DNA of 64,000 nt from a virus (lineage: Duplodnaviria > Heunggongvirae > Uroviricota > Caudoviricetes): IMG/VR virus record IMGVR_UViG_3300045597_000172; one strand, 5' to 3'. Shown one piece after another: positions 1 through 29,166 of the stretch. Position 1 is the stretch's first letter. Each line of letters begins with the position of its first letter. A program made the position numbers and the translations under genes. A model generated the notes under the pieces. That model was given only the letters and a program-made list of their open reading frames with translations. It searched no databases and had not been told where the DNA came from.

Positions 1-1
1 T

Positions 2-799
2 AATAATCGACTTGAAAAAGACGAAAATGGTGTTGCAGAAGCACGTGGAAGTTCACTTACTTCATGGCAAGGGCCATCGACTCAGAATTCAATTGCACAT
101 CCAGCCGTTGTTGATTATGTACTTGCACAGTATCTTGCACATAAACCGGACGCAGTCAACCAAGAATTTGACACTGCGTTTACTAAAAAAATCTTTGCAA
201 AATTTGTATTCGAACACTCAAAATACAATCAGACCATTGCTGACACCCTGAGATTTTTCCAATTTCCAATTGTTGCCAATCCAAAGACTGCAAGATTCTT
301 ATTTGAATCAAAAATTGGTATTGACGACACAATCGAAAATGTCAAATTACTAAATGCTACAAATAGAATTTTCCTAGCGAAAAAATCTGCAAGTGATATC
401 ACTATCAAGTCAACTGGATTACAAACAGTCAACACCTCAAGTGCCAAGAAACGTGAACCAAATGCAGAAGTCCTTCGTGACATTATCAAAGTTGATCCCG
501 TAGCTGAATATGTAATTAAGGAAAACGCAAGTCAACAATTCTACAAAGATTTATTTGATCAACCATTCCGTCCAAAAACAACAATCAAAAGTGAAAAGCC
601 ACGTGATTTAACAATCATTAAAATTACTGATTTACCATTAGATCAACCAGTAATTATTCATAATGAAGATTTACATGACGTAACTCAAACTGAATACGAA
701 GACTTACTACAAAAATTAGATATGCATGCATATCTTGATCTCGTACAAAATAAGTTTGAGACTCAATGGCAGAATCACAATGTTGAAAAATTAGCATAG
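2..799 (+). CDS. hypothetical protein, C-terminal fragment (N-terminus lies upstream of the window)
   Basis: Frame 2 is open from the window edge to TAG at 797-799. The overlapping 12..251 ORF is in a different frame. Codon usage matches neighbouring genes. Confidence 0.45.
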   Translation, partial: NNRLEKDENGVAEARGSSLTSWQGPSTQNSIAHPAVVDYVLAQYLAHKPDAVNQEFDTAFTKKIFAKFVFEHSKYNQTIADTLRFFQFPIVANPKTARFLFESKIGIDDTIENVKLLNATNRIFLAKKSASDITIKSTGLQTVNTSSAKKREPNAEVLRDIIKVDPVAEYVIKENASQQFYKDLFDQPFRPKTTIKSEKPRDLTIIKITDLPLDQPVIIHNEDLHDVTQTEYEDLLQKLDMHAYLDLVQNKFETQWQNHNVEKLA

Positions 800-823: not shown

Positions 824-2038
824 ATGAAAACTTACAAAATTGCAAACGATCTAGGATACTCATCAATGAAATTCAACATTGACGGACAAAAAGAACACAT
901 TCCAAGCATCATCGCTATTCAACGACCACAAAACATTACGAAACCGGTCGTGTTTGACACTCCAGAAGAAGAATCTGAATATTACCGCAATTTATCACAG
1001 CATATGGATGTAACAGTAACTTCCCCATCCGTGAGTCTTCAAGGTCGATTCTTAGTCGGAAAACGGGCAATTGAAGCTGGAATCCCTACTCGTGCTTTTG
1101 ACGTTAATGACTTTTCTGGAAAATCTAAGTCTGATCTTTCCTTAATTCTTACGTTGTCACGAATTGCAAATCAAGTCGTAACTGACGCATATAAGAACAA
1201 ACAGCCATTAAACGAAGTAATTAAAGCGACCGTTCTTATGTCAACTGCATTACCTATCACAGAAGGTAAAACAAAAGGTGCAATCGACGCTTATCGAAAA
1301 CGATATCTTAAAGGAAAGCATTTAGTAAACATTTTGAACTTCGAACAACCTATTACCGTTGAATTAACATTTAAAGACGTTTACGTTGGATTTGAAGGCG
1401 AAATGGCTCAATTCAAAATTGCAAACGCCGATCCTACTTTGAAACAACAAATTCTAAACGATTTTGAAAATTCTTACCCAAGTTTCAAAGGACAAATGTC
1501 AGGCGATGATCTCATCAATCTAAAGAACATTCTCGGAATTGATATTGGCGAAGGTACAACCGATTTTGTTGTCGTTACTAACGGAAAAGCTAACCCTACA
1601 GTATCAACATCCCTAGAAACCGGCTACGGTAATGTTTTGCAAGATGCAGTTTCATTATTGCAACATGACGGAATGAACATTTCCAACCGTGGAGAACTCA
1701 ATGATTTTCTTGCAAAAGACGTTTCGATTTTGACGAAAGGACGTCAAGATCATGCTCGTCAAGTTGTATTTGACCAACTTGAACAACTAGTAGATCAAAT
1801 CATTGATGCTACCTCTGAAACCATGCGTCACGCTAATTCCGACATTGAACTCGTATATGTATACGGAGGTGGTTCAATTCCGTTACTGAAAAATTCAGAC
1901 ATGCGTACGCGTTTAGTAAACAAATTAAAAGGTTTTGCTGGAGGTTACGATATTCCTGTCATCTGGATTGATCCAAGTCGTGCACAGACACTTAATGAAG
2001 ACGGATTGAAACTCGTTGTAGACAACATTTTCGAATAG
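824..2038 (+). CDS. actin-like ATPase of the ParM/StbA/Alp family (plasmid-type segregation filament protein)
   Basis: N-terminal phosphate-1 motif IANDLGYSSMKF and phosphate-2 motif GIDIGEGTTDFVVV of the actin/Hsp70 fold. Size of 404 aa. RBS aaaggatttt 8 nt upstream. Confidence 0.7.
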   Translation: MKTYKIANDLGYSSMKFNIDGQKEHIPSIIAIQRPQNITKPVVFDTPEEESEYYRNLSQHMDVTVTSPSVSLQGRFLVGKRAIEAGIPTRAFDVNDFSGKSKSDLSLILTLSRIANQVVTDAYKNKQPLNEVIKATVLMSTALPITEGKTKGAIDAYRKRYLKGKHLVNILNFEQPITVELTFKDVYVGFEGEMAQFKIANADPTLKQQILNDFENSYPSFKGQMSGDDLINLKNILGIDIGEGTTDFVVVTNGKANPTVSTSLETGYGNVLQDAVSLLQHDGMNISNRGELNDFLAKDVSILTKGRQDHARQVVFDQLEQLVDQIIDATSETMRHANSDIELVYVYGGGSIPLLKNSDMRTRLVNKLKGFAGGYDIPVIWIDPSRAQTLNEDGLKLVVDNIFE

Positions 2039-2051
2039 GAGTGAATAACCA

Positions 2052-2429
2052 ATGTCAAAATACACATACAAATACACGCCTAATGGAAAAAATGCTGAAA
2101 AAATTACTGCATGGCTAAAAAATCAACCAAATAAAGCTGAGTCCTTAAACTTATTGATTTTACAAGCTGAACGAAAATATGGAAATCGTGATATCGTTGA
2201 TATGACCACACAGGCGTTTCTTAACGATGAAATTGGAAAAGTACCAACTTCGGAAACTAAGTCATTGGCCGCACAAGTTATCGAAAGTGCAACACCCAAA
2301 AATCAACAATCCGAAACTGATACGAAAAAATCAACGTATCATGAAGATGCACAACCAGTAACAACTTCACAAGTAAAAAAAGAACCTGAAAACAAAAAAC
2401 CAAATCTAGGCTTTTTAAGTAATAAATAG
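2052..2429 (+). CDS. hypothetical protein; possible ParR-like adaptor by position immediately downstream of the actin-like gene
   Basis: 125 aa, basic N-terminal half, tightly coupled to the upstream gene. Followed by tandem terminators. No motif recognised. Confidence 0.3.
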   Translation: MSKYTYKYTPNGKNAEKITAWLKNQPNKAESLNLLILQAERKYGNRDIVDMTTQAFLNDEIGKVPTSETKSLAAQVIESATPKNQQSETDTKKSTYHEDAQPVTTSQVKKEPENKKPNLGFLSNK

Positions 2430-2436
2430 ATAAAGT

Positions 2437-2470
2437 AAAACCCAACTATTCATAACGTTGGGTTTTATTT
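2437..2470 (+). terminator. rho-independent terminator (aaaacccaac...gttgggtttt)
   Basis: Stem cccaac/gttggg followed by a T-run. Confidence 0.5.
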
Positions 2471-2478
2471 TAAGTTGA

Positions 2479-2499
2479 GGCGCCAACGGCGCCTTTTTT
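2479..2499 (+). terminator. rho-independent terminator, GGCGCC-stem family
   Basis: ggcgcc-aac-ggcgcc followed by tttttt. Confidence 0.6.
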
Positions 2500-2572
2500 G
2501 TAAAATGTTGTCATGTCCCGTACAATATCACGCAAACCAAAAAAATTAATAATTAAAAAAAGGAGAATTTTT

Positions 2573-3880
2573 ATGTCATCTGAAAAAACAATTACATTCA
2601 AGACATTAGAACCATTACTTAAACTTCATATTCAATGCGATCAAGTACCATTCCTTGCTGGTGACCCCGGAATTGGTAAATCAGCAGTTCTAAAGAAACT
2701 TGCAAATAAGTTAGATACTCAAGTATTCGTATTATCAGTCAACCAGTTAGGCACCCGTGAAGACTTAACAGGTGCAAGATCTATTATGGACGAAAATACC
2801 AAAACTTATCGTCAAGTATTCTTTCCACATGCTATTATCCAAGATTGCATTGACTATGCAAATACGCACCCTAAAGAAACACCGTTACTGTTTCTCGATG
2901 AAGTTAATAGAACTAGCACAGATGTTACATCTGCCATCATGGCAATCATTACTGAACGTCGAGTAGGTACTACCGTCTTACCAAGTAACATTAGAATTGT
3001 TGCTGCCGGAAATGATGAAGGTAATATTAACGTCATGGATAACGCATCTAATTCTCGTATGCAAATTTATCACATTGCCCCAGATATTGAATCATTTATG
3101 AATGCACAACCAAATCTTAACTACTATATCAAAATCACATTAAACAAAAATCCAAGATTGCTTGTACAAATTCCAAGCACTACCGATGATCTTGTTGGCG
3201 ATAATGATCCAGATGGAGACGATGATGAAGACGATACAAATTTGGACGATTTGTTTGATGATAACGGAATGAAACAAATCACCGTTCCACGAACATTGAA
3301 CTATTTGAGCGATTTTCTAAACGCTGCTGGTTTCGATGGAAGAAGCATTCCAGCAAACGTTGATGACTTGTATAACCAAATGGAACCAACTGAATCACCA
3401 TTGTTTGCTGCAATTACTGCAACAATTGGCGAAACAGAAACCGCAACAACTTTGTTTGATACAATCGTTACATCAATGAACAACTTAGCTGTTGCACCAA
3501 ATGCAAGTGTTCCATCACTCAACGTTCCAAAGCCAAAGAAAGAAATTGTTGACGCTATGACAAACGATATCGAATCAGACGACGATGTCAATGAAATGTT
3601 TAACGACAACAATTTAACCAGCGATAACTTCGTGGATACATTCTTTACCTTAGTACAACTTGAAAATTACAAAAAGTTAAATTATCGTGATTCAATCAAC
3701 CAATATTACCGTAACTTGACACAGCTAAATCTTGATAATACTGCTCAAATTAAGTTCTCACAAACATTTGCAGAATTATTACGCTACAATTTGGTTCCAA
3801 CACCAATTATCAATAGCATTAAAACAGAATCAGACAGCTTATCAAGTCGATTAGGTGTCTTAATTGACACGTTAAGCTAA
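2573..3880 (+). CDS. MoxR-like AAA+ ATPase with a long acidic/low-complexity C-terminal extension
   Basis: Walker A LAGDPGIGKS, Walker B/sensor LLFLDEVNRTS (the DE[IV]NR signature of MoxR/AAA_5), VAAGN sensor-1 region. ATG at 2573 preferred over track start 2513 because of the aaaaaggagaattttt RBS. Asp-rich tract DNDPDGDDDEDDTNLDDLFDDNG. Confidence 0.6.
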   Translation: MSSEKTITFKTLEPLLKLHIQCDQVPFLAGDPGIGKSAVLKKLANKLDTQVFVLSVNQLGTREDLTGARSIMDENTKTYRQVFFPHAIIQDCIDYANTHPKETPLLFLDEVNRTSTDVTSAIMAIITERRVGTTVLPSNIRIVAAGNDEGNINVMDNASNSRMQIYHIAPDIESFMNAQPNLNYYIKITLNKNPRLLVQIPSTTDDLVGDNDPDGDDDEDDTNLDDLFDDNGMKQITVPRTLNYLSDFLNAAGFDGRSIPANVDDLYNQMEPTESPLFAAITATIGETETATTLFDTIVTSMNNLAVAPNASVPSLNVPKPKKEIVDAMTNDIESDDDVNEMFNDNNLTSDNFVDTFFTLVQLENYKKLNYRDSINQYYRNLTQLNLDNTAQIKFSQTFAELLRYNLVPTPIINSIKTESDSLSSRLGVLIDTLS

Positions 3881-3951
3881 AAGCAAAAGCTGGTGCAAAT
3901 AAGGGTTCGATTCCCTTTTTTGCTATTAAATATTGAAAGGAATAATTGTCT

Positions 3952-4461
3952 ATGTTAATCTCAGAAAATTTGCTTATAACTCTTGAAAAAATTGCAAACA
4001 CAAGTTTGAAATACTCACTTGTAGCATCAGAAACAGAATATACTCGTGAAATCGAAAATTTATTACGTGTAAGACCAATTATTTATTATCGAAGAATCGG
4101 ACGAGTTGCTAGTCAATTTGGATGGGAAGAACCAAAAATTTGGAAAACTTTTGCCCAATCCAAAAAACTATCACTCACTAAAATCAAAACTTTTAAATTA
4201 CTATACGGAATTCATAAAAGTAAAAAATACGGAGTTGGATTTATAATTCCGTATGAAGAATCAATTAATTTACAAGAAATAAACGAAGAATTAACAAAAC
4301 TCTTCAAATCACACATAAAAAAACAAGTTAGAGAACAACCATTCAGATTATATGATGATCAAGAATCAAAAGCATTAGTAATAATCGAACCATATCAAAC
4401 TTCAAAAAAGGAGAATACAAATCATGCCAAAAGTAATCATGCAAAACCAAGCACCATTTGA
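3952..4461 (+). CDS. hypothetical protein between the MoxR-like and vWA genes
   Basis: ORF with gaaagga RBS. Track start 3946 is TTG; ATG at 3952 has better spacing. No motif recognised. Confidence 0.4.
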   Translation: MLISENLLITLEKIANTSLKYSLVASETEYTREIENLLRVRPIIYYRRIGRVASQFGWEEPKIWKTFAQSKKLSLTKIKTFKLLYGIHKSKKYGVGFIIPYEESINLQEINEELTKLFKSHIKKQVREQPFRLYDDQESKALVIIEPYQTSKKENTNHAKSNHAKPSTI

Positions 4462-6130
4462 CTTTAGCGATTATGTTCCAAAATTAACACGTTTTGATAA
4501 CCCACTAGAAGATGAACTTCAAGATGCTTTATTCAAAAATTTACTTGCTAAAATGAAAACCCCTGTCAACAATACCGCACCTATCAAAATCATGGTCGAC
4601 GGTAAAGAATATAAAGATGACGAAATCATCAATGATTTAACAAAAAGTGTTGCAGAAGAAGATGTAAATATTCCACGTGATGAAATCTTATCATTACTAT
4701 TTCATCAATCGTCACGTTACCGTGGTAAACATCCAGAGAATTGGAAACAAATCATTGGCAATTCCATTTTATTAAAAAATAAAGCGCCATTGCCTACTGC
4801 AAGTATGCTTTACACATACAACACAGACATTCAGAACCAAGCAAAAGATTTCCTTATGAACGATACACCTCAAACAAGAACTGAACTTTTAATCGGATTA
4901 ATTGGTAATTTAATTGCCAATACAATTAGCGATCGTTGGTGCTTTATCTTAACTAATAATTCTGATTATGACCGTATTAAAGATGAACTTGATAAAGAAA
5001 TCCAAACCTTTACAACTGATCCAGCAATCCAAGGTTTTAATCGAGATGTCCAAGGCATTGCATTTAGTAAAGACGACTGTTTTACTTCGTGGGTTACCGG
5101 AAATAATGTTTTACCGGGATCACTTAATCGTTTTATTTTAGATACACTTGAAGCATTCAAACCAAGTGGTTTTACTGAAACTCTACCACTTAACATTCAA
5201 GGAATCCTGAATCCAATCGGATTTGCATTCATTAATGTTGAAGCATTAGCAAATAGTGACCAATTAAGTTACCAACACGAACTAAAACAGCTTCAATCAG
5301 TGTCAAATAATTTGAGACGTTTTAAAATCAGTAAGCTTTCAAAAATTAAAAACGCAACAAATTATTCAAGTTCTGCACCTCACTATCAGAAACAATATAC
5401 CAAAACCATGAATGGTATTGGATCAAGAAAGCAACGTGGATTTCATAAAACCTTACCATCAACTAAGTGGCAATTATCCGTGATGAGTAAGCTCATTAAG
5501 AAACGAACATCAAAAATTATTTCTGATACAACATACAAAAGTTTTATCACAAGTTTTATGAGAGCAAATCGACGTCATCCAAATGATCCAAACTTACGTG
5601 GACGACTACAAAAAACAAATTACCGTCCAGATATTCACATTTATTTGGACTCATCTGGTTCGATCTCTGAAAGACAATATCGAACTGCCGTAACATTGTT
5701 AATTTGCATTTCAAAGAAACTAAAAACGAACTTGTACTTTACAAGTTTTTCACATGTCGTATCGCAACCTGTTAAATTAAATACCAAAAACGCATCAGTT
5801 AAACAAATCTATCGTCAAATTCAGTTAGTTCCAAAAGTAACTGGCGGTACTGAATATGAAAATGTTTGGAGAATGATTGACGTTCTTGAGAAACAAAATC
5901 GATATCATCAATTATCTCCACAATTAAACTTTATGATTACGGATTTCGAATACAACATCAGTAGTACATGGAATCCTCAATTAAATAAAGCATCTACACA
6001 AAACACCTATTATGTTCCATTAGCTGCCACACAAGATGAATATAATCGAGTTAAAAGCTACGGCATGGATTTTGCTAACCAGTTAATCGATAAAGGTGAC
6101 ATAACAATTAAATCTCGAATGATTATGTAG
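4424..6130 (+). CDS. von Willebrand factor A (vWA) domain protein, partner of the MoxR-like ATPase
   Basis: MIDAS motif IHIYLDSSGSISERQY (DxSxS) in the C-terminal third. aaaaaggaga RBS. Canonical MoxR-vWA gene pairing. Confidence 0.55.
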   Translation: MPKVIMQNQAPFDFSDYVPKLTRFDNPLEDELQDALFKNLLAKMKTPVNNTAPIKIMVDGKEYKDDEIINDLTKSVAEEDVNIPRDEILSLLFHQSSRYRGKHPENWKQIIGNSILLKNKAPLPTASMLYTYNTDIQNQAKDFLMNDTPQTRTELLIGLIGNLIANTISDRWCFILTNNSDYDRIKDELDKEIQTFTTDPAIQGFNRDVQGIAFSKDDCFTSWVTGNNVLPGSLNRFILDTLEAFKPSGFTETLPLNIQGILNPIGFAFINVEALANSDQLSYQHELKQLQSVSNNLRRFKISKLSKIKNATNYSSSAPHYQKQYTKTMNGIGSRKQRGFHKTLPSTKWQLSVMSKLIKKRTSKIISDTTYKSFITSFMRANRRHPNDPNLRGRLQKTNYRPDIHIYLDSSGSISERQYRTAVTLLICISKKLKTNLYFTSFSHVVSQPVKLNTKNASVKQIYRQIQLVPKVTGGTEYENVWRMIDVLEKQNRYHQLSPQLNFMITDFEYNISSTWNPQLNKASTQNTYYVPLAATQDEYNRVKSYGMDFANQLIDKGDITIKSRMIM

Positions 6131-6144
6131 AAAGGAGTCAAATT

Positions 6145-8007
6145 ATGACTTATCACAATGTTCCAACCGGAACTACTAACAACAATAGTAATAGTAACAA
6201 CAACAATAACAACTCTGTACCACCCGTATTACCTATCAGTGCAAAAAAGGCGCTCAAAGATGACGTCCCCGATTTACTAATTGATTACGAAAAATTAGCA
6301 AAGAAACATAAAATCCAAAAAGTAATGTTTAGAGACAACATTATCAATCGATTATTGACAATCCTAACTACTAAAAATCATCCAAACGCATTACTTGTAG
6401 GTGAAGCCGGAACTGGTAAAACAGCTATTGTTAAAGACTTAGCTGTTCGATTATACGAAGCTGATCCAATCGTCACCGCTATGTTAGGGGATAAAACAAA
6501 AATTTACGAATTGCCATTAACAAACCTAGTAGCTGGCTCTGGCATCATGGGCACTATGGAAGCAAAACTAGATAATGTTGTGAAATTCATTAGCAATCCA
6601 AAAAACAACGCTATTCTATATCTTGACGAAATTCACCAATTAACAACTACTCAAAGTTTAAAAGAAGTCGCAGAAATTCTCAAACCTGCATTAGCAAGCG
6701 GAGAACTTCACGTGATCGGGTCTACTACTACTCAAGAACTAAAATTCTGGCGTAGCAATCCGGCATTAACAAGACGCTTTTCGAATTTAATTGTAGATGA
6801 GTTATCAAACGAACAAACGGAACAAATTCTTGCAAAACTGATTCCGGTTTTACAAAAATCTAACATCATGGTTCAAGTTGATCCTACAATTTTAAGTAGA
6901 GTCGTCAAAACGGGTAACCAATATGCTAAAACTCTGGATACACATCGTCCAGATTCAGCAATTACCGTATTGGATCAAGCAATGGCAATGTCAAGATTAC
7001 AATCAATTACGTTAAAACAATCTGGCGTAACAATTCCTGCCAAAGTAACCGAACAATTAATTGATCATGCCGGAAAACAGCTTGTCAATAATAACAACGA
7101 TGATTCATTAACATCGCAAACATTGTCAGATTTACAAACACAATTTGACGAAAATATTATCGGACAAGACAAAGCCAAATCAAAAATTCTTAAATCAATT
7201 CGATCAATGATTCTTGAATTAACGCCACAAAAACGTCCATATAGCTTTCTATTTGCCGGCTTAACCGGAACAGGTAAAACCGAAATCGCAAAACAATTAG
7301 CAAAGGTTTTATTCGGTGCAAAAGATCGATTCATATATCTCAATATGACTGAATACGCAACTGATGCATCATTAACTACGTTAATTGGATCATCACGTGG
7401 CTACGTTGGTTATGATTCCGCACAACCTTTACCACTTGATACCTTAAAATCAAATCCATTTCAAATTGTTTTACTAGATGAATTTGAAAAAGCTAGTACC
7501 GATGTCAAAAGATTGTTCATGCAAGCCTTGGACGAAGGTGAAATAAGTTACGCAGACGGATCACATGTCGATTTCTCACACGCAATCGTTATTGGAACAA
7601 CGAATTCTGGAACAGATAAATTATCAGAATCTCACGTTGGTTTCGGTAATAAAGAATCAATCACCGAATCTGACTTAACAAACGCATTATTAACAAGTTT
7701 TCCACCGGAATTGTTAAATCGATTCGAATATATCGTTGCCTTCGATAAAATCACAAAAGAACAATATGCTGAAATTGTAACAATCAAGTACAACCAATTA
7801 AGACAAGAAATTAAAACATCACATCCCGAACTGGATATCATTCCAACCGTTGCCGAACCCGATATGCCCTTTATTCAAAGTATCACTGATAAAAGCTACG
7901 ATGCGCTAAAGAACGCACGTCCAGCAGAAAGATCAGTTAGACATTTTGTAGAAGATCAACTTTTAAACGCCAATCAAGGAACTATCGACTTAACGGCAAT
8001 TGTTTAG
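6145..8007 (+). CDS. Clp/Hsp100-family double-AAA+ unfoldase (ClpA/ClpC-like, compact, no M-domain) with a putative ClpP-docking loop
   Basis: D1 Walker A LLVGEAGTGKTAIV, Walker B ILYLDEIHQL, IGSTTTQE...ALTRRF. D2 Walker A FLFAGLTGTGKTEIAKQL, Walker B IVLLDEFEKA, IGTTNSG. HVGFG tripeptide loop at the position of the ClpA IGL / ClpX IGF loop. Poly-Asn tract near the N-terminus. Confidence 0.75.
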   Translation: MTYHNVPTGTTNNNSNSNNNNNNSVPPVLPISAKKALKDDVPDLLIDYEKLAKKHKIQKVMFRDNIINRLLTILTTKNHPNALLVGEAGTGKTAIVKDLAVRLYEADPIVTAMLGDKTKIYELPLTNLVAGSGIMGTMEAKLDNVVKFISNPKNNAILYLDEIHQLTTTQSLKEVAEILKPALASGELHVIGSTTTQELKFWRSNPALTRRFSNLIVDELSNEQTEQILAKLIPVLQKSNIMVQVDPTILSRVVKTGNQYAKTLDTHRPDSAITVLDQAMAMSRLQSITLKQSGVTIPAKVTEQLIDHAGKQLVNNNNDDSLTSQTLSDLQTQFDENIIGQDKAKSKILKSIRSMILELTPQKRPYSFLFAGLTGTGKTEIAKQLAKVLFGAKDRFIYLNMTEYATDASLTTLIGSSRGYVGYDSAQPLPLDTLKSNPFQIVLLDEFEKASTDVKRLFMQALDEGEISYADGSHVDFSHAIVIGTTNSGTDKLSESHVGFGNKESITESDLTNALLTSFPPELLNRFEYIVAFDKITKEQYAEIVTIKYNQLRQEIKTSHPELDIIPTVAEPDMPFIQSITDKSYDALKNARPAERSVRHFVEDQLLNANQGTIDLTAIV

Positions 8008-8039
8008 TATTCGGGCCAATTTAGAAAGGAGCACCACCA

Positions 8040-11000
8040 ATGCCTGTTGACTTAACAAAAATTAACACTACTAAGCAACAAAAACCAAAATTTAACACAT
8101 CGTATTTTCATCATTCCCTTACGGGAATGGGTGGAAAAGTCGGATTGTTCAATAATACCAATACTGTTATTGCAGACAATTTCAAAAAGCATCTATTCCA
8201 ATCCCAACAAGCACTTCCAATTGTTGATCCAAAATTCAACAAATCTGATAAAGCCTTAATGTATGCTAGTGACCTAACTCCGACTGTGCCGGGAGGATAT
8301 CAAGACGATAAGCACCACACTTTTGATTTGTCGCCCCTCTCTATTTTGGCTCAAACTGAACAAAAATGCCGTACCGTTAGATTTACAAAACTGCCAGCAT
8401 TTCTTGCAGAATTGAAAATGCATGAACTTGCAAAAAACAAAGATGATGAAACGCTTAGCGTTGGACTAATCGCAAATCGTGTTGAATATTATCATTACCG
8501 CAACATGAAAGATACTGCCCTAACTGCCGAATCATTTATTTTACATTCAAGTCTTGTATTAAAAGTTACAAAACCAAATGCTAAACGAACAACTGTTCAC
8601 ATGCTCAGAAATGATAATTCTGAGTTAGTAACTTTACAGAAAAGCAGCAAAAGTAATCAAATCATTGTACTAAACGACATTGATCTGTACGTTGGTAAAG
8701 AAAATGGACAAGCATTACATCCAACACTATTCATGGCATTATCGCAAATTAAAAAGAATTACAATTTACAAGATGCTAAAGCAAAAAACACAAGTTATCC
8801 AAATGATCTATACGCTACGGCATCCGCAATCATGGATTATTTAGAGACCATTAACATGGCAGATTCAATCCGTGAGCAAGCACGAATTAATCATGAAAGT
8901 CTTCTTGATGATTTAGCAACATTGGTTAAGTTCATGAACAACACACCAGAACAATTTAACAACCATAGAAAAATCATCATTAACGCATATCATCTAATTA
9001 AACTGGAAGAGTTAAACTATAAGGAAAATGACTATCAAAGATTTTACAATGAAATCAAGTATCAAACGTTAAAGCATCATTGCAAAAATCCACTATATCG
9101 TTACAAACCATATAATTTTAACAAACTGATTTCCGTAAATACTAGACTTTCATTAACCCACCAAATTAGTAACCTGAAAAATAACTCTGCTGTTTATAAA
9201 TTCTCACCATCTGTTACAAAATTACAAACAACCGAGAAATATTCACCTGAACAATCTGCCATAATTCATACCACTGAACCATATAGTGTCGGAATTGCTG
9301 GAGCAGGATCAGGGAAATCACATACGTTACTAGGCCGATTAGAATTTCTACAACAAAACGGAATTGATTTCAAAAAGGTTTTAGTAACATCCTTTACCAA
9401 TACGGCTGCTCAAAATATTATTAACCGATTCAAAAGTGGAATTAACTCGTTAACTAACGCAAATTTGTTTCATAAAATCTATCAAGCAAATTTCCAACAT
9501 GAATTAACAAACGATCTAACCATCGCAAATTTGTTAAAGATGATTTCAGATTCAGCACCAATTATGAAATCAAATAGTACAATTAACGATACTCGTTTAA
9601 AGTTAGCAAAATTAATTGAAAGCAGTGTTTCAACTGGATTCCAGAAAGTTGATCCTCGAAAAATAACTGAATCATTAATTGCCTTAATCAACGAAAACTT
9701 AGATGACGTTATCACTATTTTAGATGCCGTTGGACAAACAAGTTTATTACTAGAACCAATCGTAATTAACGCATTAATGCAAAATCAAGCAACCATTAAA
9801 TATCCTAAAGAATTAAACAATCTTGACTTCATTATTACAGATGAATCACAAGATACATCCGCCTTTGAATATGTATTGTTATTGCAACTTGCACAAATCA
9901 ATGACGCACAGTTGATGATTATCGGTGATGCAAACCAAACATTGTATGAATTTCGTAATGCAAACCCTGATTTCCTGAATGCTCTTGAACGTTCAGATGT
10001 TTTCAAAACGTACACAATGTCAACAAATTATCGTTCAAAACAAAGTGTATTAACATTAGCAAATCAGTTTTTAGATGTTCTAAAAACAAATTCGACTGCA
10101 AAATTACAATTACATGCAAATAAATACAGTAATTTAGATTTAGCACAATTCAAAGACGACATTGAACTGGAAAACTTGATTTTACAACCTGAATCAAAAA
10201 AGGCAGAAGATTTCAAGTCTGAATTAATTAGAACTTTAGTTGATCGTCAAGACTTTCGTGATTGGGTTATTGACCAATACCATAACAAAAATCAAATTGC
10301 TATCATGGCATATCGTAATAATGACACCCAATCTATTGGCGAAGCCGTTCAAAGAGTCATTGAAAACACCCTTGGACAAACTGTAACTGTCGGATATACA
10401 AGACAGCCAACGCCACGTCCAAATACATGGCTTTCTCAAATGTTAAGTGGAACATACGATGCTGATTTCAAAAAGTTTGCAAAGAGTGGACATTTAACAA
10501 CTAAGCATGTAATCAATAGTTTAACTGCTAGACTTCAAGTCATTGCAAATAAACGTCATTACAACGCTGGCGTAATTAACCAATGGGCTTTAGACCAAGT
10601 AAATGAACTAACAAAACGACAAATTTTCAAAATCAACCTTAATGATCTCAACGCCAAACGTATTTCGTTAGGCGCATTTAATGGCTTCATCTCAATGTGG
10701 TTAATTAAAGCTGAAACTAAGAAAAACAACGTAAGTCGACTAATTAACAATCAACAAAACACCGACTGGCAAAATTGTGACATTGTCGTTTCAACAATTC
10801 ATTCAGCAAAAGGACTTGAGTTTGATTCTGTAATTTGTTACTTTGACGAAACCATGCGTTCAGCAACTACCCAAGAAAATCTTCGATTATTCGGCGTTGC
10901 CTTAACACGTGCAAAAAGTAAAGAACTGATTTTAAACCGTCCAAAATTAGAACGAGTAACCAATGCGATCCCTGTTCCAACAAGCTTTGCATATGAAAAA

Positions 11001-11087
11001 TCAGATATGTTTAAAACACCAATGCGAACTGCATACATGCGTGTAAAACAAGATTTAACACCCGCACCAAAAAAAGTAAATCCATAA
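8040..11087 (+). CDS. UvrD/PcrA-like SF1 helicase with an approximately 400-aa N-terminal extension of unknown function
   Basis: Motif I GIAGAGSGKSHTLLGRL, motif II FIITDESQDTS, motif VI VVSTIHSAKGLEFDSVI, LTRAK near the C-terminus. N-terminal 400 aa have no recognised motif. Confidence 0.7.
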   Translation: MPVDLTKINTTKQQKPKFNTSYFHHSLTGMGGKVGLFNNTNTVIADNFKKHLFQSQQALPIVDPKFNKSDKALMYASDLTPTVPGGYQDDKHHTFDLSPLSILAQTEQKCRTVRFTKLPAFLAELKMHELAKNKDDETLSVGLIANRVEYYHYRNMKDTALTAESFILHSSLVLKVTKPNAKRTTVHMLRNDNSELVTLQKSSKSNQIIVLNDIDLYVGKENGQALHPTLFMALSQIKKNYNLQDAKAKNTSYPNDLYATASAIMDYLETINMADSIREQARINHESLLDDLATLVKFMNNTPEQFNNHRKIIINAYHLIKLEELNYKENDYQRFYNEIKYQTLKHHCKNPLYRYKPYNFNKLISVNTRLSLTHQISNLKNNSAVYKFSPSVTKLQTTEKYSPEQSAIIHTTEPYSVGIAGAGSGKSHTLLGRLEFLQQNGIDFKKVLVTSFTNTAAQNIINRFKSGINSLTNANLFHKIYQANFQHELTNDLTIANLLKMISDSAPIMKSNSTINDTRLKLAKLIESSVSTGFQKVDPRKITESLIALINENLDDVITILDAVGQTSLLLEPIVINALMQNQATIKYPKELNNLDFIITDESQDTSAFEYVLLLQLAQINDAQLMIIGDANQTLYEFRNANPDFLNALERSDVFKTYTMSTNYRSKQSVLTLANQFLDVLKTNSTAKLQLHANKYSNLDLAQFKDDIELENLILQPESKKAEDFKSELIRTLVDRQDFRDWVIDQYHNKNQIAIMAYRNNDTQSIGEAVQRVIENTLGQTVTVGYTRQPTPRPNTWLSQMLSGTYDADFKKFAKSGHLTTKHVINSLTARLQVIANKRHYNAGVINQWALDQVNELTKRQIFKINLNDLNAKRISLGAFNGFISMWLIKAETKKNNVSRLINNQQNTDWQNCDIVVSTIHSAKGLEFDSVICYFDETMRSATTQENLRLFGVALTRAKSKELILNRPKLERVTNAIPVPTSFAYEKSDMFKTPMRTAYMRVKQDLTPAPKKVNP

Positions 11088-11234
11088 AACACAAGCCGTA
11101 AAGGGTACCTTGGCCCTCATGTTGGTTCAAATCCAATTACGGCTATTGCTATTCCAAAAAATATTCGTTATACTGTATCTGTCCAATATTTATATAATTA
11201 TATAAATAATACAGAACACAGGAGGTCAAAAAGA

Positions 11235-11393
11235 ATGTCAGAACGAGAAACATATTCCGTAAGACTATTGCCAAAAATTATGCAACAAGCACAAATAAAA
11301 GCAATTCAAGACGGATATAACAATCGCTCAATCCTAATCGAAAAGGCAATCATCGAATATTTGGAGGCGCACAAAAATGAAACCAAATCGTAA
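11235..11393 (+). CDS. ribbon-helix-helix (CopG/Arc/ParD-like) DNA-binding protein, 52 aa
   Basis: Not in the ORF track because it is under 60 aa. Strong RBS acaggaggtcaaaaaga-ATG. Sequence SVRLLPKIMQQAQIKAIQDGYNNRSILIEKAIIEYLEAH follows the RHH pattern (beta-strand then two helices). Overlaps the start of the nuclease gene. Confidence 0.5.
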   Translation: MSERETYSVRLLPKIMQQAQIKAIQDGYNNRSILIEKAIIEYLEAHKNETKS

Positions 11394-12234
11394 ACAAAAA
11401 TCCCTAGCACTATTACTAATTGGGATCTTAATCGTTATTGTACTATTCATTGCATCAATCGTCATCGGATCAATTGTTAGCAAAATTAGTAACAACAATA
11501 CAACAAAAACCGAAACTGTACAAAAAGCATCATCGTCAAGCAATACCCCAATCCAAAATATGCCAACACAAACACAATATCAAACAGCATATTACAATGT
11601 ACAAAGCATCATTGGGGATGCTACATACAACGGAAACGGCGCTTATATTGTTAACAATAATAAATCAACATTGATTGCAAAAAATTCAACAAAGCCATTT
11701 GCTGCCAACACACTTGACGCAAAAGGTCGTCCAAACACGGCTAACGCATTCTTGACCAAGCAAACAAGACAATATAAAAACCGTGAAGAAACCAATAACG
11801 GTCGTACAAAATGGGTTCCAAACGGATGGCATCAAGTTGTAAATCTTCCCGGAAAATACACATACGCATATAACCGAGGACATTTACTAGCATACGCACT
11901 TGTCGGTGGAATTAAAAAATACGATGCATCTGAATCTAACAAAAAAAATATCATTACACAAACTATGTGGGCAAACCAAGCATCCACAAGTAATAATACC
12001 GGACAGGCATACTATGAAACCATTGTCAGAAAAGCACTTGATAAAAACAAAAAAATAAGATATCAAGTTCGCCCACTCTATGGAGAAAAATCAAGTACAA
12101 ATGTCGTACCCTATGGTGTTCAAATTCAAGCAGTTTCAACAGACGGCACAATTAACTTCAACGTATTCATTCCAAATGCTCAAGGAAACATCAATGTAAA
12201 TTACAGTAACGGAACGGTTACACAATCAAATTAA
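11377..12234 (+). CDS. membrane-anchored DNA/RNA non-specific endonuclease, EndA/DNA-entry-nuclease-like
   Basis: N-terminal TM helix LALLLIGILIVIVLFIASIVIGSIV. Catalytic-region motif NRGHLLAYALVGG...SNKKNIITQTMWANQ resembles the (D/N)RGH...N...WxNQ signature of the EndA/Endonuclease_NS family. Confidence 0.55.
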   Translation: MKPNRKQKSLALLLIGILIVIVLFIASIVIGSIVSKISNNNTTKTETVQKASSSSNTPIQNMPTQTQYQTAYYNVQSIIGDATYNGNGAYIVNNNKSTLIAKNSTKPFAANTLDAKGRPNTANAFLTKQTRQYKNREETNNGRTKWVPNGWHQVVNLPGKYTYAYNRGHLLAYALVGGIKKYDASESNKKNIITQTMWANQASTSNNTGQAYYETIVRKALDKNKKIRYQVRPLYGEKSSTNVVPYGVQIQAVSTDGTINFNVFIPNAQGNINVNYSNGTVTQSN

Positions 12235-12260
12235 CAACGTAAGAAAGGAACATCAAAAGC

Positions 12261-12953
12261 ATGAAATTACTAGCAGAAGAAAATCTTGCTAACAACATTG
12301 TTACAGCTATCGAACACAGCTTTACCCTGCAAAAAAATATACACGTAACCTTTATTTCAGGAAATCAATTAAAAGAAATTCCAATTGGACAAAAAATACT
12401 TGATAACAGTCTAAACGATCTACAAGAAAATTATCACTTGAAAATCGGAAAGAACTATAACCAAATCGTGCCAACTAGACTATATCTAACGATCTTTGAA
12501 CCTCTGGCAAATAATCAAAACAGCATAAAACTAGTCGTACCATTCAGCGCTAACATTGCAAGCATTCTAATCGGAGCATTAATCAAAAATCCAAAAGATA
12601 AAACATGGACCGAAACTGAAATCACCACTAATCTGGACGAAATAAAAAGAAAATCATTTGACGATCTCGTTATTTACCAGTTGTTTAAATTCTACACACC
12701 TGATAAAGAGAAAGTACCTACTGTTCCAAAAGAAATCCTGAAAAAAATTTCATACAAAGGTTTCGAAAACGACAGTTTTAACATGGAAATTCTATTTGAA
12801 CTTCCAATTAATGATATTTACCAACCATTACAACTAAAAATCATCGAACACGAAAAAAACACAGATTACAATGAAATCTCATTGGCACCCGTGAAATTTA
12901 TCAGTTACGATGAAAAATCAAAAAAAGTACAACTAATTACTTCCTTATACTAA
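12261..12953 (+). CDS. hypothetical protein
   Basis: ORF with gaaaggaacatcaaaagc-ATG RBS. No motif recognised. Confidence 0.4.
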   Translation: MKLLAEENLANNIVTAIEHSFTLQKNIHVTFISGNQLKEIPIGQKILDNSLNDLQENYHLKIGKNYNQIVPTRLYLTIFEPLANNQNSIKLVVPFSANIASILIGALIKNPKDKTWTETEITTNLDEIKRKSFDDLVIYQLFKFYTPDKEKVPTVPKEILKKISYKGFENDSFNMEILFELPINDIYQPLQLKIIEHEKNTDYNEISLAPVKFISYDEKSKKVQLITSLY

Positions 12954-12989
12954 CCGAATAAAAATTAAGAAAGGAGGTCTTCTTATCAC

Positions 12990-15377
12990 ATGTTTAATTA
13001 TCAATCATTGATCAATCCTACTACCTCTGGAATATATCTAAAAGTACCAGCAAGATCACGAAAACAAGAATTTGCATTATATAAAATCACAGACGAGCCG
13101 CAAACAAATCTTGATGAACTAGAAAAAAACTTCGATTTTCGTTATCTAACACTTCAAAAGAACTCATTAACACTGGTATTAATTCCATTCGAAAACGAAA
13201 TCCGATCTGACCAATTTGAAAATCTGGAATTTGAATTTTTTAACGATAACTTCTCAAAATATACGTATGGACATTCATACCGCGACCGAAGCACTAATAT
13301 TGTACCTTTTGAACTACATCATCCTAAAAGTGATTACGTAAACGCTATGAAATTCGTACAAGATCAACAAATATATTTTGACACTGACAAAATTAAAGAA
13401 GCTTTAGCTGAATACGTTAAGACTGAAGAATTTAAAGATATTAGTATCGATGCCTTGAAAACAAGAACATTTTTGCATTCATTAGCAAACGATGTCTATA
13501 ACAGTATTTACACACAAACCGATTTGGACTTGATTTTAAGTATCTTACGACCTCATATTAAGAAAATCGGAAAAGAATATAAAACTGCATATAGTGAAAT
13601 TGATCAAAGTTCAGAACTTAGAGCAAGAACCAAGCCATTTGGACAATACCTAAAGTTATATCGAACCAACCACGGACAAGCCAAAAATATTGCACAGCAA
13701 ATGTTATCGATGATGGCAAGTGATTTTGAACCTAACCCGAAATTGGATCTCTCAATTGCTGCCGATTTAATATCTCAAATCTATCCACCTGCATTAATTG
13801 AAGGTGGTGGCCATGACCGTGATAATGTAGTAATCTTTGATCCACTTGAAGGAATCTGGATTCATAATGAAGACTTATTTTATTCGTTACTAACTGCAAT
13901 ACGTCCATATTCAAAACAAAACGAATTAACGACTATGGTTGCAACATTTGCAGCACAAGCACGTAATAAAGACTCATTTATAAAACCCTATAACCAAAGT
14001 AGATACTTGCCGTTTAAAAACGTAGTTTTAGATGTAAAAACAAAATTGACATATCCTCTCGATCACGATTTAGTCAAAAAACTACACTTTATTGAAAGAA
14101 CTCAAATAAATCTAAACTATGATCCCGAAGTTATTGCTGCCCCAGAATTTCCGGGAAAATTGAATAACCGAAATAAAAACGGAAACTTCACATGGGATCC
14201 ATGGACATTCTTTATGGCTTACGCTGATAACGATCCTAAGAAATTAAACTTCTTCATGTTTTGTCTTTCACTCGGACTATTCTCAGGACACAATTTCGGT
14301 GTTCATGTCAATATCAAAGGTGAATCTCGTTGGGGTAAAACAATCATTAGTGAAGTATTCAAAGGACTATTCCCCGGAAAAGTCTTTACCAAAGCATTTT
14401 CAACATTAAATGAACAATTTGGATTTACCAGTTATGATCCTTCGACAAGTGTTATCTGGATCGATGAATGTAACAGCGATGCCGCACCATTAAATAACGA
14501 ATACGGTATTCAAGTATATGATTCCTTAGCAAATAACCAAGCCCATTTACAAGTTAAAAGTAAAGGAGATCTTCAACTAAATAATCCGCCACAAATGTTC
14601 ATTGATGGTACATCATTTGTAAAAGCTAAAGATATGGATACTGGTCCTGCCGGTAGAACCTTAGTTTATAAATTACCAATGGAAGATGACTCAAAAAACA
14701 GCATCACTGAATTAATCCATCAAGCCTACGCAAAAGACATTATTGAATTATTACAAGATGAAGCTGTTTTACAATTTCTAGTAAACATGATGATTGAAGC
14801 TTACCGTACCTGTCTAGGTTTGACCCCTGATAACTACGATCGATTGTGGTCGTTAAAACTCAATTTAGGTGGACATTCAAGCGATACAACATTACTTCCC
14901 GAATTTGCACGTGATTGGCGTCAAGAAATGGCCAAAACGCAAGGTGGCGACATTCAAGAATGGTTTGAATATGATTTCATGCCATACTTCTCAACTGATC
15001 CAAAAGAGCCAACAAAGATGCACAACGCATTAGCATACTTATTCTATGCCAATGATTACAAAACAAAATACAGTCGCCAAGACCCACACAACCAATTCAT
15101 GTTGGCTGAACGAAACTTTTCTAATCAATTCAAAAATCTACTTAAAGAAAACGGTTGGGAACGTTCCGAAGTACGTGAAGCAAACGGAAGAAAAACTAGA
15201 CAGTCAAACAAATATCTATCAAAACTTAATTTCGCAGAACAAGCCTATAAAGATGACGGACATCAAATTCCAATTGAATTTACAAAAGAAAACATTGATT
15301 CCGATCGTCCATTGAGTTCATATCCACTTGGTATGAAAGTAACTGGTTGGTATAAAATAATCAAAGTAAAGCAATGA
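12990..15377 (+). CDS. P-loop NTPase, putative replicative primase-associated helicase (SF3/D5-P4-like)
   Basis: Walker A IKGESRWGKTIISEVF, Walker B-like VIWIDECNSD. 795 aa. Lies upstream of an AEP-type primase candidate. aaggaggtcttcttatcac-ATG RBS. Confidence 0.45.
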   Translation: MFNYQSLINPTTSGIYLKVPARSRKQEFALYKITDEPQTNLDELEKNFDFRYLTLQKNSLTLVLIPFENEIRSDQFENLEFEFFNDNFSKYTYGHSYRDRSTNIVPFELHHPKSDYVNAMKFVQDQQIYFDTDKIKEALAEYVKTEEFKDISIDALKTRTFLHSLANDVYNSIYTQTDLDLILSILRPHIKKIGKEYKTAYSEIDQSSELRARTKPFGQYLKLYRTNHGQAKNIAQQMLSMMASDFEPNPKLDLSIAADLISQIYPPALIEGGGHDRDNVVIFDPLEGIWIHNEDLFYSLLTAIRPYSKQNELTTMVATFAAQARNKDSFIKPYNQSRYLPFKNVVLDVKTKLTYPLDHDLVKKLHFIERTQINLNYDPEVIAAPEFPGKLNNRNKNGNFTWDPWTFFMAYADNDPKKLNFFMFCLSLGLFSGHNFGVHVNIKGESRWGKTIISEVFKGLFPGKVFTKAFSTLNEQFGFTSYDPSTSVIWIDECNSDAAPLNNEYGIQVYDSLANNQAHLQVKSKGDLQLNNPPQMFIDGTSFVKAKDMDTGPAGRTLVYKLPMEDDSKNSITELIHQAYAKDIIELLQDEAVLQFLVNMMIEAYRTCLGLTPDNYDRLWSLKLNLGGHSSDTTLLPEFARDWRQEMAKTQGGDIQEWFEYDFMPYFSTDPKEPTKMHNALAYLFYANDYKTKYSRQDPHNQFMLAERNFSNQFKNLLKENGWERSEVREANGRKTRQSNKYLSKLNFAEQAYKDDGHQIPIEFTKENIDSDRPLSSYPLGMKVTGWYKIIKVKQ

Positions 15378-27736: not shown

Positions 27737-28012
27737 ATCTCAGTACGAGGCGCAAAGATTGACGCTAAAAACAAAGAAATTTGTTATATCTGATAACCGA
27801 TTGTGAATTGGTTCAACACCAATACAGAAGTTGGAGCTTAGAATCGGTTAACTTATAAAGTTTGAATCCTTATCGTACTATTTCATGCGTGCATTAACTT
27901 GCCAACCATAATTGGTTGCCGTCGCATAGAACTGCACCGACGTCAGTACAGCGTCGTAAAATAAATTAAGCAACACTCCTACAAGGAAATATTGTGCAGG
28001 TATTTCCATAAT

Positions 28013-28084
28013 TGTCCAATAGTTCAGTGGTAGAATATCTGACTGTTAATCAGAGGGTCGTAGGTTCGAATCCTACTTGGACAG
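28013..28084 (+). tRNA. tRNA-Asn (anticodon GTT)
   Basis: Acceptor tgtccaa/ttggaca. D-arm gttc-agtggta-gaat. Anticodon arm tctga-ctGTTaa-tcaga. T-arm gtagg-ttcgaat-cctac. Confidence 0.75.
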
Positions 28085-28303
28085 TAGATGCTACTAAACA
28101 AAGGCATTGCGCTAATTGCGAAAACCAAATAACATTGTTTACTAACGGTGTAACTAAGCTGGGCTAAATGCATCAAAACGATGCATAAATTATGAGATAT
28201 AAATTAAACGCTGGATTGCAACCAGTTGCTCATAATACCAATATTAAAAATGGTACCATTCTTAATATTAGTAGTTAGGTTCGATTCCTAAACGCTGTTA
28301 TTT

Positions 28304-28369
28304 CGTGATTGTAGCTCAAGACAAGAGTCATCGTTGTGACGAGATATTGGTGCAAATCCAATCAATCAC
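28304..28369 (+). ncRNA. degenerate tRNA-like element (66 nt) with T-loop UGCAAAU
   Basis: Acceptor gtgattg/caatcac (7/7). D-arm-like gctc-aagacaa-gagt. T-arm attgg-tgcaaat-ccaat. Anticodon arm truncated. Confidence 0.3.
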
Positions 28370-28405
28370 ATCATAAAATTCAAAATTGGAAAGGAAGATG
28401 TAAAA

Positions 28406-29138: not shown

Positions 29139-29166
29139 TTGACAACCAAAGCCAACATGCTAACAT
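29139..29166 (+). promoter_or_regulatory. candidate sigma-A-type promoter upstream of tRNA-Asn (TTGACA-N16-TAACAT)
   Basis: -35 box ttgaca at 29139-29144, 16-nt spacer, -10 box taacat at 29161-29166. tRNA starts at 29184. Confidence 0.3.

Follow-up and report, generated by a model that had tools for sequence, protein, structure and literature searches.

The DNA described here (the window) is a stretch of 64,000 nucleotides (nt) from the IMG/VR virus record IMGVR_UViG_3300045597_000172, in the first 20 kb of which every sizeable open reading frame (ORF) lies on the + strand. Near its left end a row of genes encodes a MoxR/AAA_5-type AAA+ ATPase, a protein with a von Willebrand factor A (vWA) domain and a MIDAS (an adhesion site that depends on a metal ion), an Hsp100/ClpC-like unfoldase (the Clp-like protein) and a UvrD-like helicase, with a spacer ORF between the first two (Table 1). 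A sequence-only reading of the window had described the ATPase, the spacer ORF and the vWA protein as a three-gene module in a phage. The coordinates it gave for the ATPase and vWA genes were correct, and the genetic pairing of a MoxR-class ATPase with a MIDAS vWA protein is borne out by the motifs GDPGIGKS and LFLDEVNR, a complete MIDAS and confident AlphaFold models. The module itself has to be redrawn: the spacer ORF occurs only in the closest clade, the core consists of two genes with a variable insertion, and the conserved unit is the four-gene cassette MoxR, vWA, Hsp100/ClpC-like unfoldase and UvrD-like helicase, which large mobile DNA elements of Gram-positive bacteria, more than 100 of them, have inherited whole.

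The proteins of the window were compared by tblastn with 82 loci, and the order MoxR, vWA, Clp-like, UvrD-like was found in every sufficiently long locus, in Actinomycetota as well as Bacillota; the sole exception was the Staphylococcus jumbo phage SA1, which has the pair without the Clp-like and UvrD-like genes. Clustering of the ORFs of 111 loci recovered the Clp-like family in 101, the UvrD-like and vWA families in 94 each and the MoxR family in 81, the last figure being an undercount, as antisense ORFs were picked in high-GC loci. The four genes are inherited together: for 63 loci, the matrices of pairwise identity within each family correlate with one another at r = 0.97-0.99. Regarding annotated plasmids, tblastn with the vWA protein yielded three actinobacterial plasmids (from Streptomyces, Rhodococcus and Gordonia), and in all three, including Gordonia pGKT2, the annotation runs MoxR/AAA ATPase, hypothetical protein (the vWA protein), AAA family ATPase and ATP-dependent helicase. 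The same gene order was seen in each metagenomic contig looked up and in 72 species-representative genomes, mostly of Streptomyces, Arthrobacter/Pseudarthrobacter, Nocardiopsis and Promicromonospora; further carriers are Evansella, Lachnospiraceae, Oscillospiraceae and, by a separate look-up, Virgibacillus. The vWA protein is also encoded on 32 IMG/VR contigs, with the cassette order in 8/8 examined. A megablast search with positions 2400-8100 against phage and plasmid collections gave no match. In the literature searched, the closest papers included, the cassette is nowhere described; this applies to the obligatory four-gene arrangement, the acidic lid insert of the ATPase, the family-specific N-domain of the vWA protein and the distribution as a backbone marker.

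Table 1. Features of the cassette and its surroundings (positions are those of the window; residues are those of the respective protein).
Feature	Position (nt)	Residues	Strand	Remarks
ParM/Alp7A-like actin operon	within 824-2429			404 aa; phrog_691 'partition protein' 3.5e-29
Tandem terminator hairpins (two)	2431-2502		+	Divide ParM-like operon from cassette
Promoter-like site and ribosome-binding site	2498-2565		+	Consensus matches only
ATPase gene	2573-3880		+	MoxR/AAA_5-type AAA+ ATPase, 435 aa
Walker A GDPGIGKS	2660-2683	G30-S37	+	ATPase
Predicted helix-2-insert hairpin		66-85	+	ATPase, AlphaFold model
Walker B/DEVNR (LFLDEVNR)	2888-2911	106-113	+	ATPase
Pre-sensor-1 hairpin		about 129-137	+	ATPase, AlphaFold model
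Acidic lid insert	3164-3274	198-234	+	ATPase, about 37 aa; ahead of sensor-2 helix
Sensor-2 'PRT'	3287-3295	239-241	+	ATPase
C-terminal all-helical domain	3359-3880	263-435	+	ATPase, about 170 aa; no family assignment
Spacer ORF	3952-4461		+	169 aa; 38-nt overlap with vWA start; lineage-specific junction insertion
vWA gene	4424-6130		+	vWA/MIDAS adaptor protein, 568 aa
Adaptor N-domain	4424-5338	1-305	+	Mixed alpha/beta, family-specific (model)
Adaptor disordered linker	5351-5431	310-336	+	Model
Adaptor long beta-hairpin	5528-5626	369-401	+	Strands 369-381 and 392-401 (model)
vWA domain		403-568	+	C-terminal fold, model
MIDAS DSSGS	5648-5662	D409-S413	+	vWA protein
MIDAS T476	5849-5851	T476	+	vWA protein
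MIDAS D507	5942-5944	D507	+	vWA protein
Clp-like gene	6145-8007		+	Hsp100/ClpC-like two-ring AAA+ unfoldase, 620 aa
[VIM]-G-F loop	7636-7644	498-500	+	Clp-like protein, 3' of the 'TTNA' motif of nucleotide-binding domain 2 (NBD2)
Helicase gene	8040-11087		+	UvrD/PcrA-like superfamily 1 (SF1) helicase, 1015 aa; final gene of cassette
Primase-like gene 'p348'	15963-17009		+	Conserved motifs; weak PHROG primase matches of relatives
YdjM	18463-18963			Neighbour family
tmRNA, complete	29767-30095		+	Rfam 105.9 bits; tag peptide AKENTLVAA
SNF2	46772-48091			Neighbour family
MgsA	59235-60509			Neighbour family

Upstream of the cassette, the first terminator is an inverted repeat with 16-nt arms (2431-2472) and the second a G+C-rich stem (2477-2495) followed by a T run. 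Consensus matches indicate a promoter-like site at 2498-2526 (TTGTAA, 17 nt, TACAAT) and an AAGGAG ribosome-binding site at 2560-2565, 7 nt ahead of the ATG at 2573. An ATG at 2513, just 3' of the tandem terminators, was considered as the start of the ATPase gene and rejected. The start was assigned to the ATG at 2573 because of the position of the ribosome-binding site, the starts of homologous ATPases (which begin at MSSEK), the gene calls on identical contigs (435 aa) and the location of 2513 inside the promoter-like site. The intergenic gaps are 14 nt between the vWA and Clp-like genes and 32 nt between the Clp-like and helicase genes. A terminator scan found no strong terminator-like site inside the cassette of the window; a weak 5-bp hairpin lies 3' of the ATPase gene (3901-3917) and a hairpin without a T run 3' of the helicase gene. 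With this layout the four genes would be transcribed together as one operon.

The spacer ORF is a real gene, because a relative whose vWA protein is 62% identical carries at the same junction a 158-aa ORF that is 34% identical to it (E = 1e-30). It is missing from relatives whose vWA proteins are 53% and 44% identical, and some other relatives have unrelated ORFs at this site. The gap between the MoxR and vWA genes has a median of 101 nt (63 complete loci) and exceeds 300 nt in 8 of the 63, the window included. No family match of the spacer ORF was obtained in Pfam, PADLOC, PHROGs or PDB (best PDB E = 0.15). The junction ORF of the relative L009 (9738-9983) matches the Sequestin family, described as a phage sponge against type I Thoeris (bioRxiv 10.64898/2026.06.04.730250); sequence comparison showed no similarity between this ORF and the spacer ORF of the window. 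The junction seems to accept accessory cargo.

The ATPase was matched by Pfam AAA_5 with E = 1e-13 (51.9 bits against a cut-off of 22). Residues G30, G35, K36, D109, E110, N112, R113, N147, R162 and P239-R240 are invariant in 47 homologues; by analogy with MoxR, N147 is a candidate sensor-1 and R162 a candidate Arg finger, and R240 would be sensor-2. The AlphaFold model is confident (predicted local distance difference test, pLDDT, 85.9) and has a beta-hairpin ahead of helix 2 and short strands ahead of strand 4, so that the predicted fold has the structural features of the helix-2-insert/pre-sensor-1 clade, with modules of MoxR, dynein or midasin as the nearest structures. Hexamer formation is proposed by analogy with NorQ/NorD-type pairs. 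What had been read as a 60-aa Asp-rich linker or tail is indeed an acidic segment, although it is shorter and forms an insert in the lid, being neither tail nor interdomain linker. In the model it is disordered (pLDDT < 50 at residues 205-224). All 47 family members (47/47) have it, with a length of 23-43 aa, a D+E content of 35% (median; minimum 26%) as against 14% in the whole ATPase, and 3% K+R; in the members sampled it terminates in an acidic-aromatic motif such as EVFDE or, in the window, DDLFDD. Likewise, the C-terminal domain without recognisable motif exists, its size having been overestimated at 250 aa. A weak match of PADLOC PDC-M46A (E = 5.5e-5) falls within this domain at residues 335-428.

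The vWA protein was modelled with similar confidence (pLDDT 86.7). Its MIDAS is complete, as D409, S411, G412, S413, T476 and D507 are invariant across 57 homologues. The N-terminal region, earlier put at 380 aa, does hold an extra domain, which the model divides from a disordered linker and a long beta-hairpin. R383, R384 and G393 at the tip of the hairpin are invariant in the same 57 homologues, and the hairpin with its RR tip is a candidate pore 'finger'. The motif HExxH is absent from the protein of the window, and the 57-homologue alignment shows no conserved His/Glu pair in the N-domain. In a Pfam scan of the 57 family members the N-domain was assigned to no family and gave no peptidase match; the DUF2201 VWA-like model matched 41 of them. 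A phmmer search with the N-domain yielded just 16 matches among 1.84 billion representatives, all of them 543-598-aa members of the same family, and a PDB profile search with the vWA family yielded nothing significant. Pairwise identity of the full-length vWA protein within the family is as low as 19%.

The Clp-like protein has Pfam matches to AAA, AAA_lid_9 and AAA_2 (2e-41) and matches phrog_4871 'ATP-dependent protease' at 8.5e-125; the Walker sets of both rings are intact. Its short length and the Pfam matches listed for it indicate that ClpB-type N- and M-domain families are not represented. Its loop reads H-V-G-F-G in the window (residues 496-500, nt 7630-7644), and G499 and F500 are kept in at least 95% of 101 homologues. 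An [LIV]-G-[FL] loop after the sensor-1 of NBD2 is the ClpP-docking loop of ClpA, ClpC, ClpE and ClpX; ClpB is without such a loop. The label ClpC-like was chosen because a conserved VGF-type loop occupies the ClpP-docking position and the protein is too short for the N- and M-domains of ClpB. On these sequence features the product of the third gene would be ClpC-like and able to feed host ClpP, and it may be a protease-coupled unfoldase instead of a disaggregase. A tblastn search with the Clp-like protein against phages gave generic Hsp100 matches of 30-34% and no phage with the cassette. The UvrD-like helicase has an N-terminal extension of about 400 aa without family assignment.

An Hsp100-type protein beside a MoxR-vWA pair could also belong to a protein-quality-control island that benefits the host, comparable to the plasmid-borne ClpK/ClpL heat-resistance loci, with the helicase as an unrelated neighbour. 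The matches to AAA_2 and phrog_4871 would suit such a role, and some MoxR proteins are reported to act as stress chaperones (PMC11432383). This explanation is nevertheless very improbable: the helicase is co-inherited as tightly as the other three genes (r = 0.97-0.98), the Clp-like protein appears, from its 620 aa and its Pfam matches, to be without the domains that handle aggregates, and the neighbouring genes are of DNA metabolism, not chaperones.

Among known systems, NorQ/NorD, CbbQ/CbbO and RavA/ViaA have the same architecture of a MoxR-class motor and a vWA/MIDAS adaptor, and NorD has the layout of the adaptor in the window, namely an N-domain, a linker, a beta-hairpin and an intact MIDAS. 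A single NorD binds the NorQ hexamer, and the proposal is that its vWA 'finger' reaches into the pore; the NorD MIDAS binds the client, through acidic residues, and not the ATPase, and specificity is ascribed to the N-domain (PMC9976466). The clients of such pairs are metabolic enzymes (cNOR, Rubisco, respiratory complexes), none of which is conserved near the pair of the window; no dedicated client enzyme is conserved in the cassette locus among the clustered loci. In contrast to NorQ/NorD-type pairs, this pair is found on mobile elements with an SF1 helicase and a Clp-like unfoldase as obligate partners; its ATPase carries the acidic lid insert and the additional helical domain, and sequence searches reveal no relation between the adaptor N-domain and NorD, CbbO or ViaA.

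The nearest relatives outside the family itself are the N4 gp24/gp25-type proteins. The N4 gp24-type phrog_1297 matches the ATPase at 7e-32 (residues 2-292), the N4 gp25-type phrog_1314 matches the vWA part alone at 1e-8, and hhalign of the vWA family against LUZ7 gp39 gave a probability of 86.5% over 121 columns. The LUZ7 gp37 ATPase has the core motifs in common (GSPAIGKS, LDEIN, AAGN, APRTWE) and is without the acidic insert, and a PNRR motif ahead of DxSGS is common to the vWA proteins of the window and of Staphylococcus phage SA1 and to the LUZ7 gp25-type protein. In LUZ7 the ATPase gene is followed by a small ORF, the vWA gene (its product annotated 'HNH'), a gp37-like helicase gene, a hypothetical gene and the DNA polymerase gene, in this order. 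In N4-like phages, the gp24 ATPase and the gp25 vWA protein are among 14 core genes and are middle genes (PMC4193335). The proteins of N4 type, of about 356 and 401 aa, are shorter, lack the acidic insert, this N-domain and the C-terminal domain of the ATPase, and share about 25-30% identity in the ATPase core; their genes are not linked to Clp-like or UvrD-like genes, the N4 gp37-type helicase being of another family by annotation. A few genes separate the pair of phage SA1 from the DNA polymerase gene, and such a pair is found beside replication genes in three separate lineages. A more distant comparison is with midasin/Rea1, a single chain of about 5000 aa with six fused AAA modules and a long linker, whereas here each chain has one AAA module, the adaptor is separate and the ATPase has only the short acidic lid insert. 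Acidic segments accompany the combination of motor and MIDAS in midasin and in subunit D of magnesium chelatase.

MoxR-vWA pairs of viruses and mobile elements are also known from Acidianus two-tailed virus (ATV; p618/p892) and from jumbo phages, where they occur with a metallopeptidase; the vWA protein of the window gave weak Foldseek matches to ATV ORF892 (E = 5.7e-4) and to phage vWA proteins with a 'metallopeptidase domain'. The family described here differs from these pairs in having no peptidase motif or match, no link to structural genes and other neighbours. The sequence-only reading had suggested a chaperone for a pilus or virion; the pair would mature a virion, a tail or the downstream Tad/type IV-like surface machine. 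A role of this kind was proposed for ATV p618/p892 in tail growth (PMC4124505) and for the MoxR-vWA-peptidase pairs of T4-like group 2.2 jumbo phages (PMC7824862); besides the Foldseek match, the 32 related IMG/VR contigs and the T2SSE/VirB11-like ATPase (38225-39691) and LPXTG/MucBP surface proteins of the window may be cited in its favour. It is nonetheless unlikely. A structural, pilus or virion gene is conserved beside the pair in 0/111 clustered loci, the linked genes being those of DNA metabolism; a PHROGs scan of 62 window proteins gave no virion-protein family; the secretion ATPase lies 32 kb away, outside the conserved neighbourhood; the N-domain has neither HExxH nor a peptidase match; and the cultured carriers are plasmids and chromosomal elements.

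The conserved neighbourhood includes a primase-like family of about 350 aa, present in 75 of the 111 clustered loci (L012, L039, L082 and L084 are examples) and usually encoded on the strand of the MoxR gene, directly upstream of it; in the window its gene is displaced about 10 kb downstream. The invariant residues D90-x-E92, S114..G117-G118-x-H120, E157 and H163 form a D-x-E / S..GG-x-H / E / H pattern that resembles the motifs of archaeo-eukaryotic primases, and in PHROGs three primase families were matched by family members in six member-to-family pairs (best E = 2.6e-5), none of which involves the copy in the window. The family has no Pfam match, its best hit in PDB was not significant (E = 0.87, chain 6a9w, named 'Primase'), and a profile search of 5.8 billion proteins returned unannotated family members only. 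The assignment as primase-like is probable. Other recurrent neighbours by locus clustering are SNF2, MgsA/RarA-type AAA+, LysM, YdjM and PemK/MazF-like proteins. Gordonia pGKT2 has a P4-type primase and a DEAD/SNF2 helicase in the same co-directional block, and Rhodococcus pGS01 a type IV coupling protein, a single-stranded DNA-binding protein (SSB) and SNF2 within 30 kb of the cassette. Lsr2-type silencer genes adjoin the block in the Rhodococcus and Gordonia plasmids. A conserved upstream family of about 337 aa with a Pro/Ala-rich tail ('c5') resembles an SSB to the eye; Pfam, PHROGs and PDB gave nothing, and no identity is assigned to it. Downstream of the helicase gene and after an ORF of about 50 aa, the window encodes an endonuclease of the DNA/RNA non-specific type, the N-terminus of which has a hydrophobic segment (gene at 11377-12234); an endonuclease after an ORF of about 50 aa likewise occurs in two relatives with vWA proteins 44% and 62% identical (L010, 17107-18009, and L116, 17010-17933, respectively).

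Regarding the element as a whole, its earlier description as a phage was not borne out by the PHROGs scans. No virion-protein family was found in the ten proteins of 824-15377 (E <= 1e-3), nor among the 25 listed of the 26 PHROGs families matched by 52 further proteins of the window (E <= 1e-5); the window covers 64 kb, and the contig is at least 237 kb long, the exact window proteins being found on a JGI contig of 236,971 bp. A walk past the right end of the window met NUDIX, Metallophos, DHHA1 and T4 gp30.3-like genes and no virion or type IV secretion genes. Among annotated phage and plasmid records, the vWA protein matched the actinobacterial plasmids and, weakly and in part, one Staphylococcus jumbo phage; tblastn found no annotated phage with the cassette, and the cultured relatives are actinobacterial plasmids and chromosomal loci. 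A phage is suggested by 18-19 tRNA genes in three clusters on the + strand (22540-31231 and 44385-44632) together with the tmRNA, by genes of nucleotide metabolism (RtcB and RNase H in the window; uracil-DNA glycosylase, NUDIX and T4 gp30.3-like just outside) and by the cataloguing of 32 related contigs in IMG/VR; the ParM-like actin, the LPXTG protein, the MucBP adhesin and the T2SSE-type ATPase of the window speak against it. Such a combination of tRNA array and tmRNA is characteristic of huge phages and also of certain giant plasmids. The element has genes of DNA-repair type (MgsA, SNF2, RadC, RNase H, RtcB), a GC content of about 34-35%, all genes on one strand and an almost monotonic cumulative GC skew. 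It is best named a large extrachromosomal element, 'phage' being unproven. In size, GC content (about 32-35%), tRNAs and LPXTG proteins it is similar to Inocle, a plasmid-like element of oral streptococci (PMC12340149), and kinship with Inocles, which would be based on such shared general traits only, may exist.

Further features of the element were noted. The ParM-like actin gene is followed by a gene for a 125-aa protein, which may be an adaptor, and the operon ends in the two tandem terminators; in the relative L010 an IS605-family TnpB gene sits between the ParM-like operon and the MoxR gene. Surface-related genes of the window encode an LPXTG-anchored protein of 1125 aa (19086-22463), a 1423-aa adhesin with four MucBP repeats (33063-37334) and a T2SSE group (38225-41387), in which the T2SSE/VirB11-type ATPase and two proteins of about 280 aa may form a Tad-like secretion or pilus set. 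In the IMG/VR sample 3300045988, about 20 contigs of 105-125 kb (L084-L108) carry the vWA gene, and those inspected (e.g., L084) match an Actinomyces contig from a metagenome-assembled genome (L082) in the order of the whole neighbourhood; perhaps they represent complete genomes of a single type of element that has been filed as viral.

Inheritance as a block with an unfoldase and a helicase across mobile elements points to work on DNA-bound proteins, not to virus assembly. We tentatively favour, with a probability of roughly 0.45, the reading that a NorQ/NorD-like pair remodels a protein or nucleoprotein client in the DNA-replication or establishment module of the element; the cassette would then belong, in Actinomycetota and Bacillota, to the replication/establishment backbone of a family of large mobile elements. 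Inferred parts of this mechanism are a physical interaction of the proteins, a finger seated in the pore, docking on ClpP, the nature of the client and a connection with replication. By analogy with NorQ/NorD, the hexameric ATPase would hold one adaptor through the RR-tipped beta-hairpin in its pore, and the fast-evolving N-domain of the adaptor would select the client, presumably a protein on the DNA of the element or in its replication or establishment machinery. The MIDAS ion would clamp an acidic residue of this client while ATP hydrolysis pulls on it. The client might then be handed over to the unfoldase, probably docked on host ClpP, and the helicase would clear the DNA. The acidic-aromatic lid insert could act as an internal MIDAS ligand or as a DNA mimic.

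Several observations weigh against this reading. The subfamily placement of the ATPase inside MoxR stays tentative, because the Pfam models of MoxR proper scored below their cut-offs (AAA_3 25.4 against 27, bpMoxR 23.9 against 27); the putative ClpP docking is deduced from a tripeptide, the primase assignment from motifs and weak PHROG matches only, and the linkage to replication genes is suggestive, not proof. In addition, three features are hallmarks of conflict loci, namely the fast evolution of the adaptor N-domain, seen in the identity floor and the few phmmer matches given above, the accessory ORFs at cassette junctions, including the Sequestin-family sponge in one relative, and a PemK/MazF-like toxin gene that often lies 3' of the UvrD-like helicase (34 loci, e.g., L084, L082, L103 and L063). 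The same features favour a conflict system, used by the mobile element for defence or counter-defence, in which the pair senses or captures an invader protein or a host immune protein, the Clp-like protein destroys it and the helicase acts on foreign or own DNA, for example in anti-restriction or anti-CRISPR establishment after transfer or in the exclusion of competing elements. NTP-dependent conflict systems built around MoxR-vWA pairs have been proposed (PMC7159879), one such pair is implicated in threat signalling in Actinomycetales (PMC13622651), the carriers are all mobile elements, and in PADLOC the Clp-like protein matches PDC-M37B (5e-40) and DolB (3e-29) and the helicase matches GajB and a DRT-associated helicase model.

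The resemblance to the MoxR-vWA ternary conflict systems of PMC7159879 lies in the MoxR-vWA core, the variable and often mobile loci of Actinomycetota and other lineages of multicellular habit, and the fast-evolving specificity domains; the text of that paper contains neither UvrD nor SF1, and ClpB in a reference only. Pfam and clustering revealed no VMAP/beta-propeller third component and no effector or death-like domain among the conserved neighbours or on the vWA protein, and no effector domain of the nuclease, protease or toxin type was found. PADLOC gave no match of the vWA protein and two weak matches of the ATPase only (E = 5.5e-5 and 1.3e-3), and its matches of the Clp-like protein and the helicase are generic domain matches. 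Moreover, the cassette is a fixed backbone, with the same order and r = 0.97-0.99 in two phyla and beside primase-like, SNF2 and MgsA genes, whereas defence cargo is usually patchy. The pair is MoxR-vWA by fold, motifs and gene pairing, and it lacks the distinguishing features of the ternary conflict, jumbo-phage peptidase-vWA and enzyme-maturation groups. The conflict or defence role raised by the sequence-only reading is hence without its expected third component and effector domains and keeps its status as a rival, a doubtful one that ranks above assembly and stress protection. The probability left over by these readings is not assigned to any of them.

Beyond the preferred reading of a client-remodelling pair in a replication/establishment module, a more far-reaching version is conceivable, which we regard as speculative. 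The four genes would form one machine that extracts and destroys a specific DNA-bound protein (a host silencer, an immune nuclease, or an initiator or relaxase of the element itself), with the acidic loop gating the motor, and would be the signature backbone of a trans-phylum lineage of giant extrachromosomal or integrative elements of Gram-positive bacteria. That lineage may include Inocle-like oral elements and the IMG/VR contigs of about 110 kb from sample 3300045988.

Although MoxR-vWA pairs occur widely, clients are known for no more than a handful of them, and the core pair gp24/gp25 of N4-like phages still has no assigned function. The family described here provides such pairs with a defined context, always with Clp-like and UvrD-like genes and usually with an adjoining primase-like gene, and its carriage on plasmids of cultured Gordonia, Rhodococcus and Streptomyces opens the question of the client to direct tests. 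In practice the cassette can further serve as a marker for poorly charted large elements of Gram-positive bacteria, which current tools file inconsistently as plasmid, chromosome or virus.

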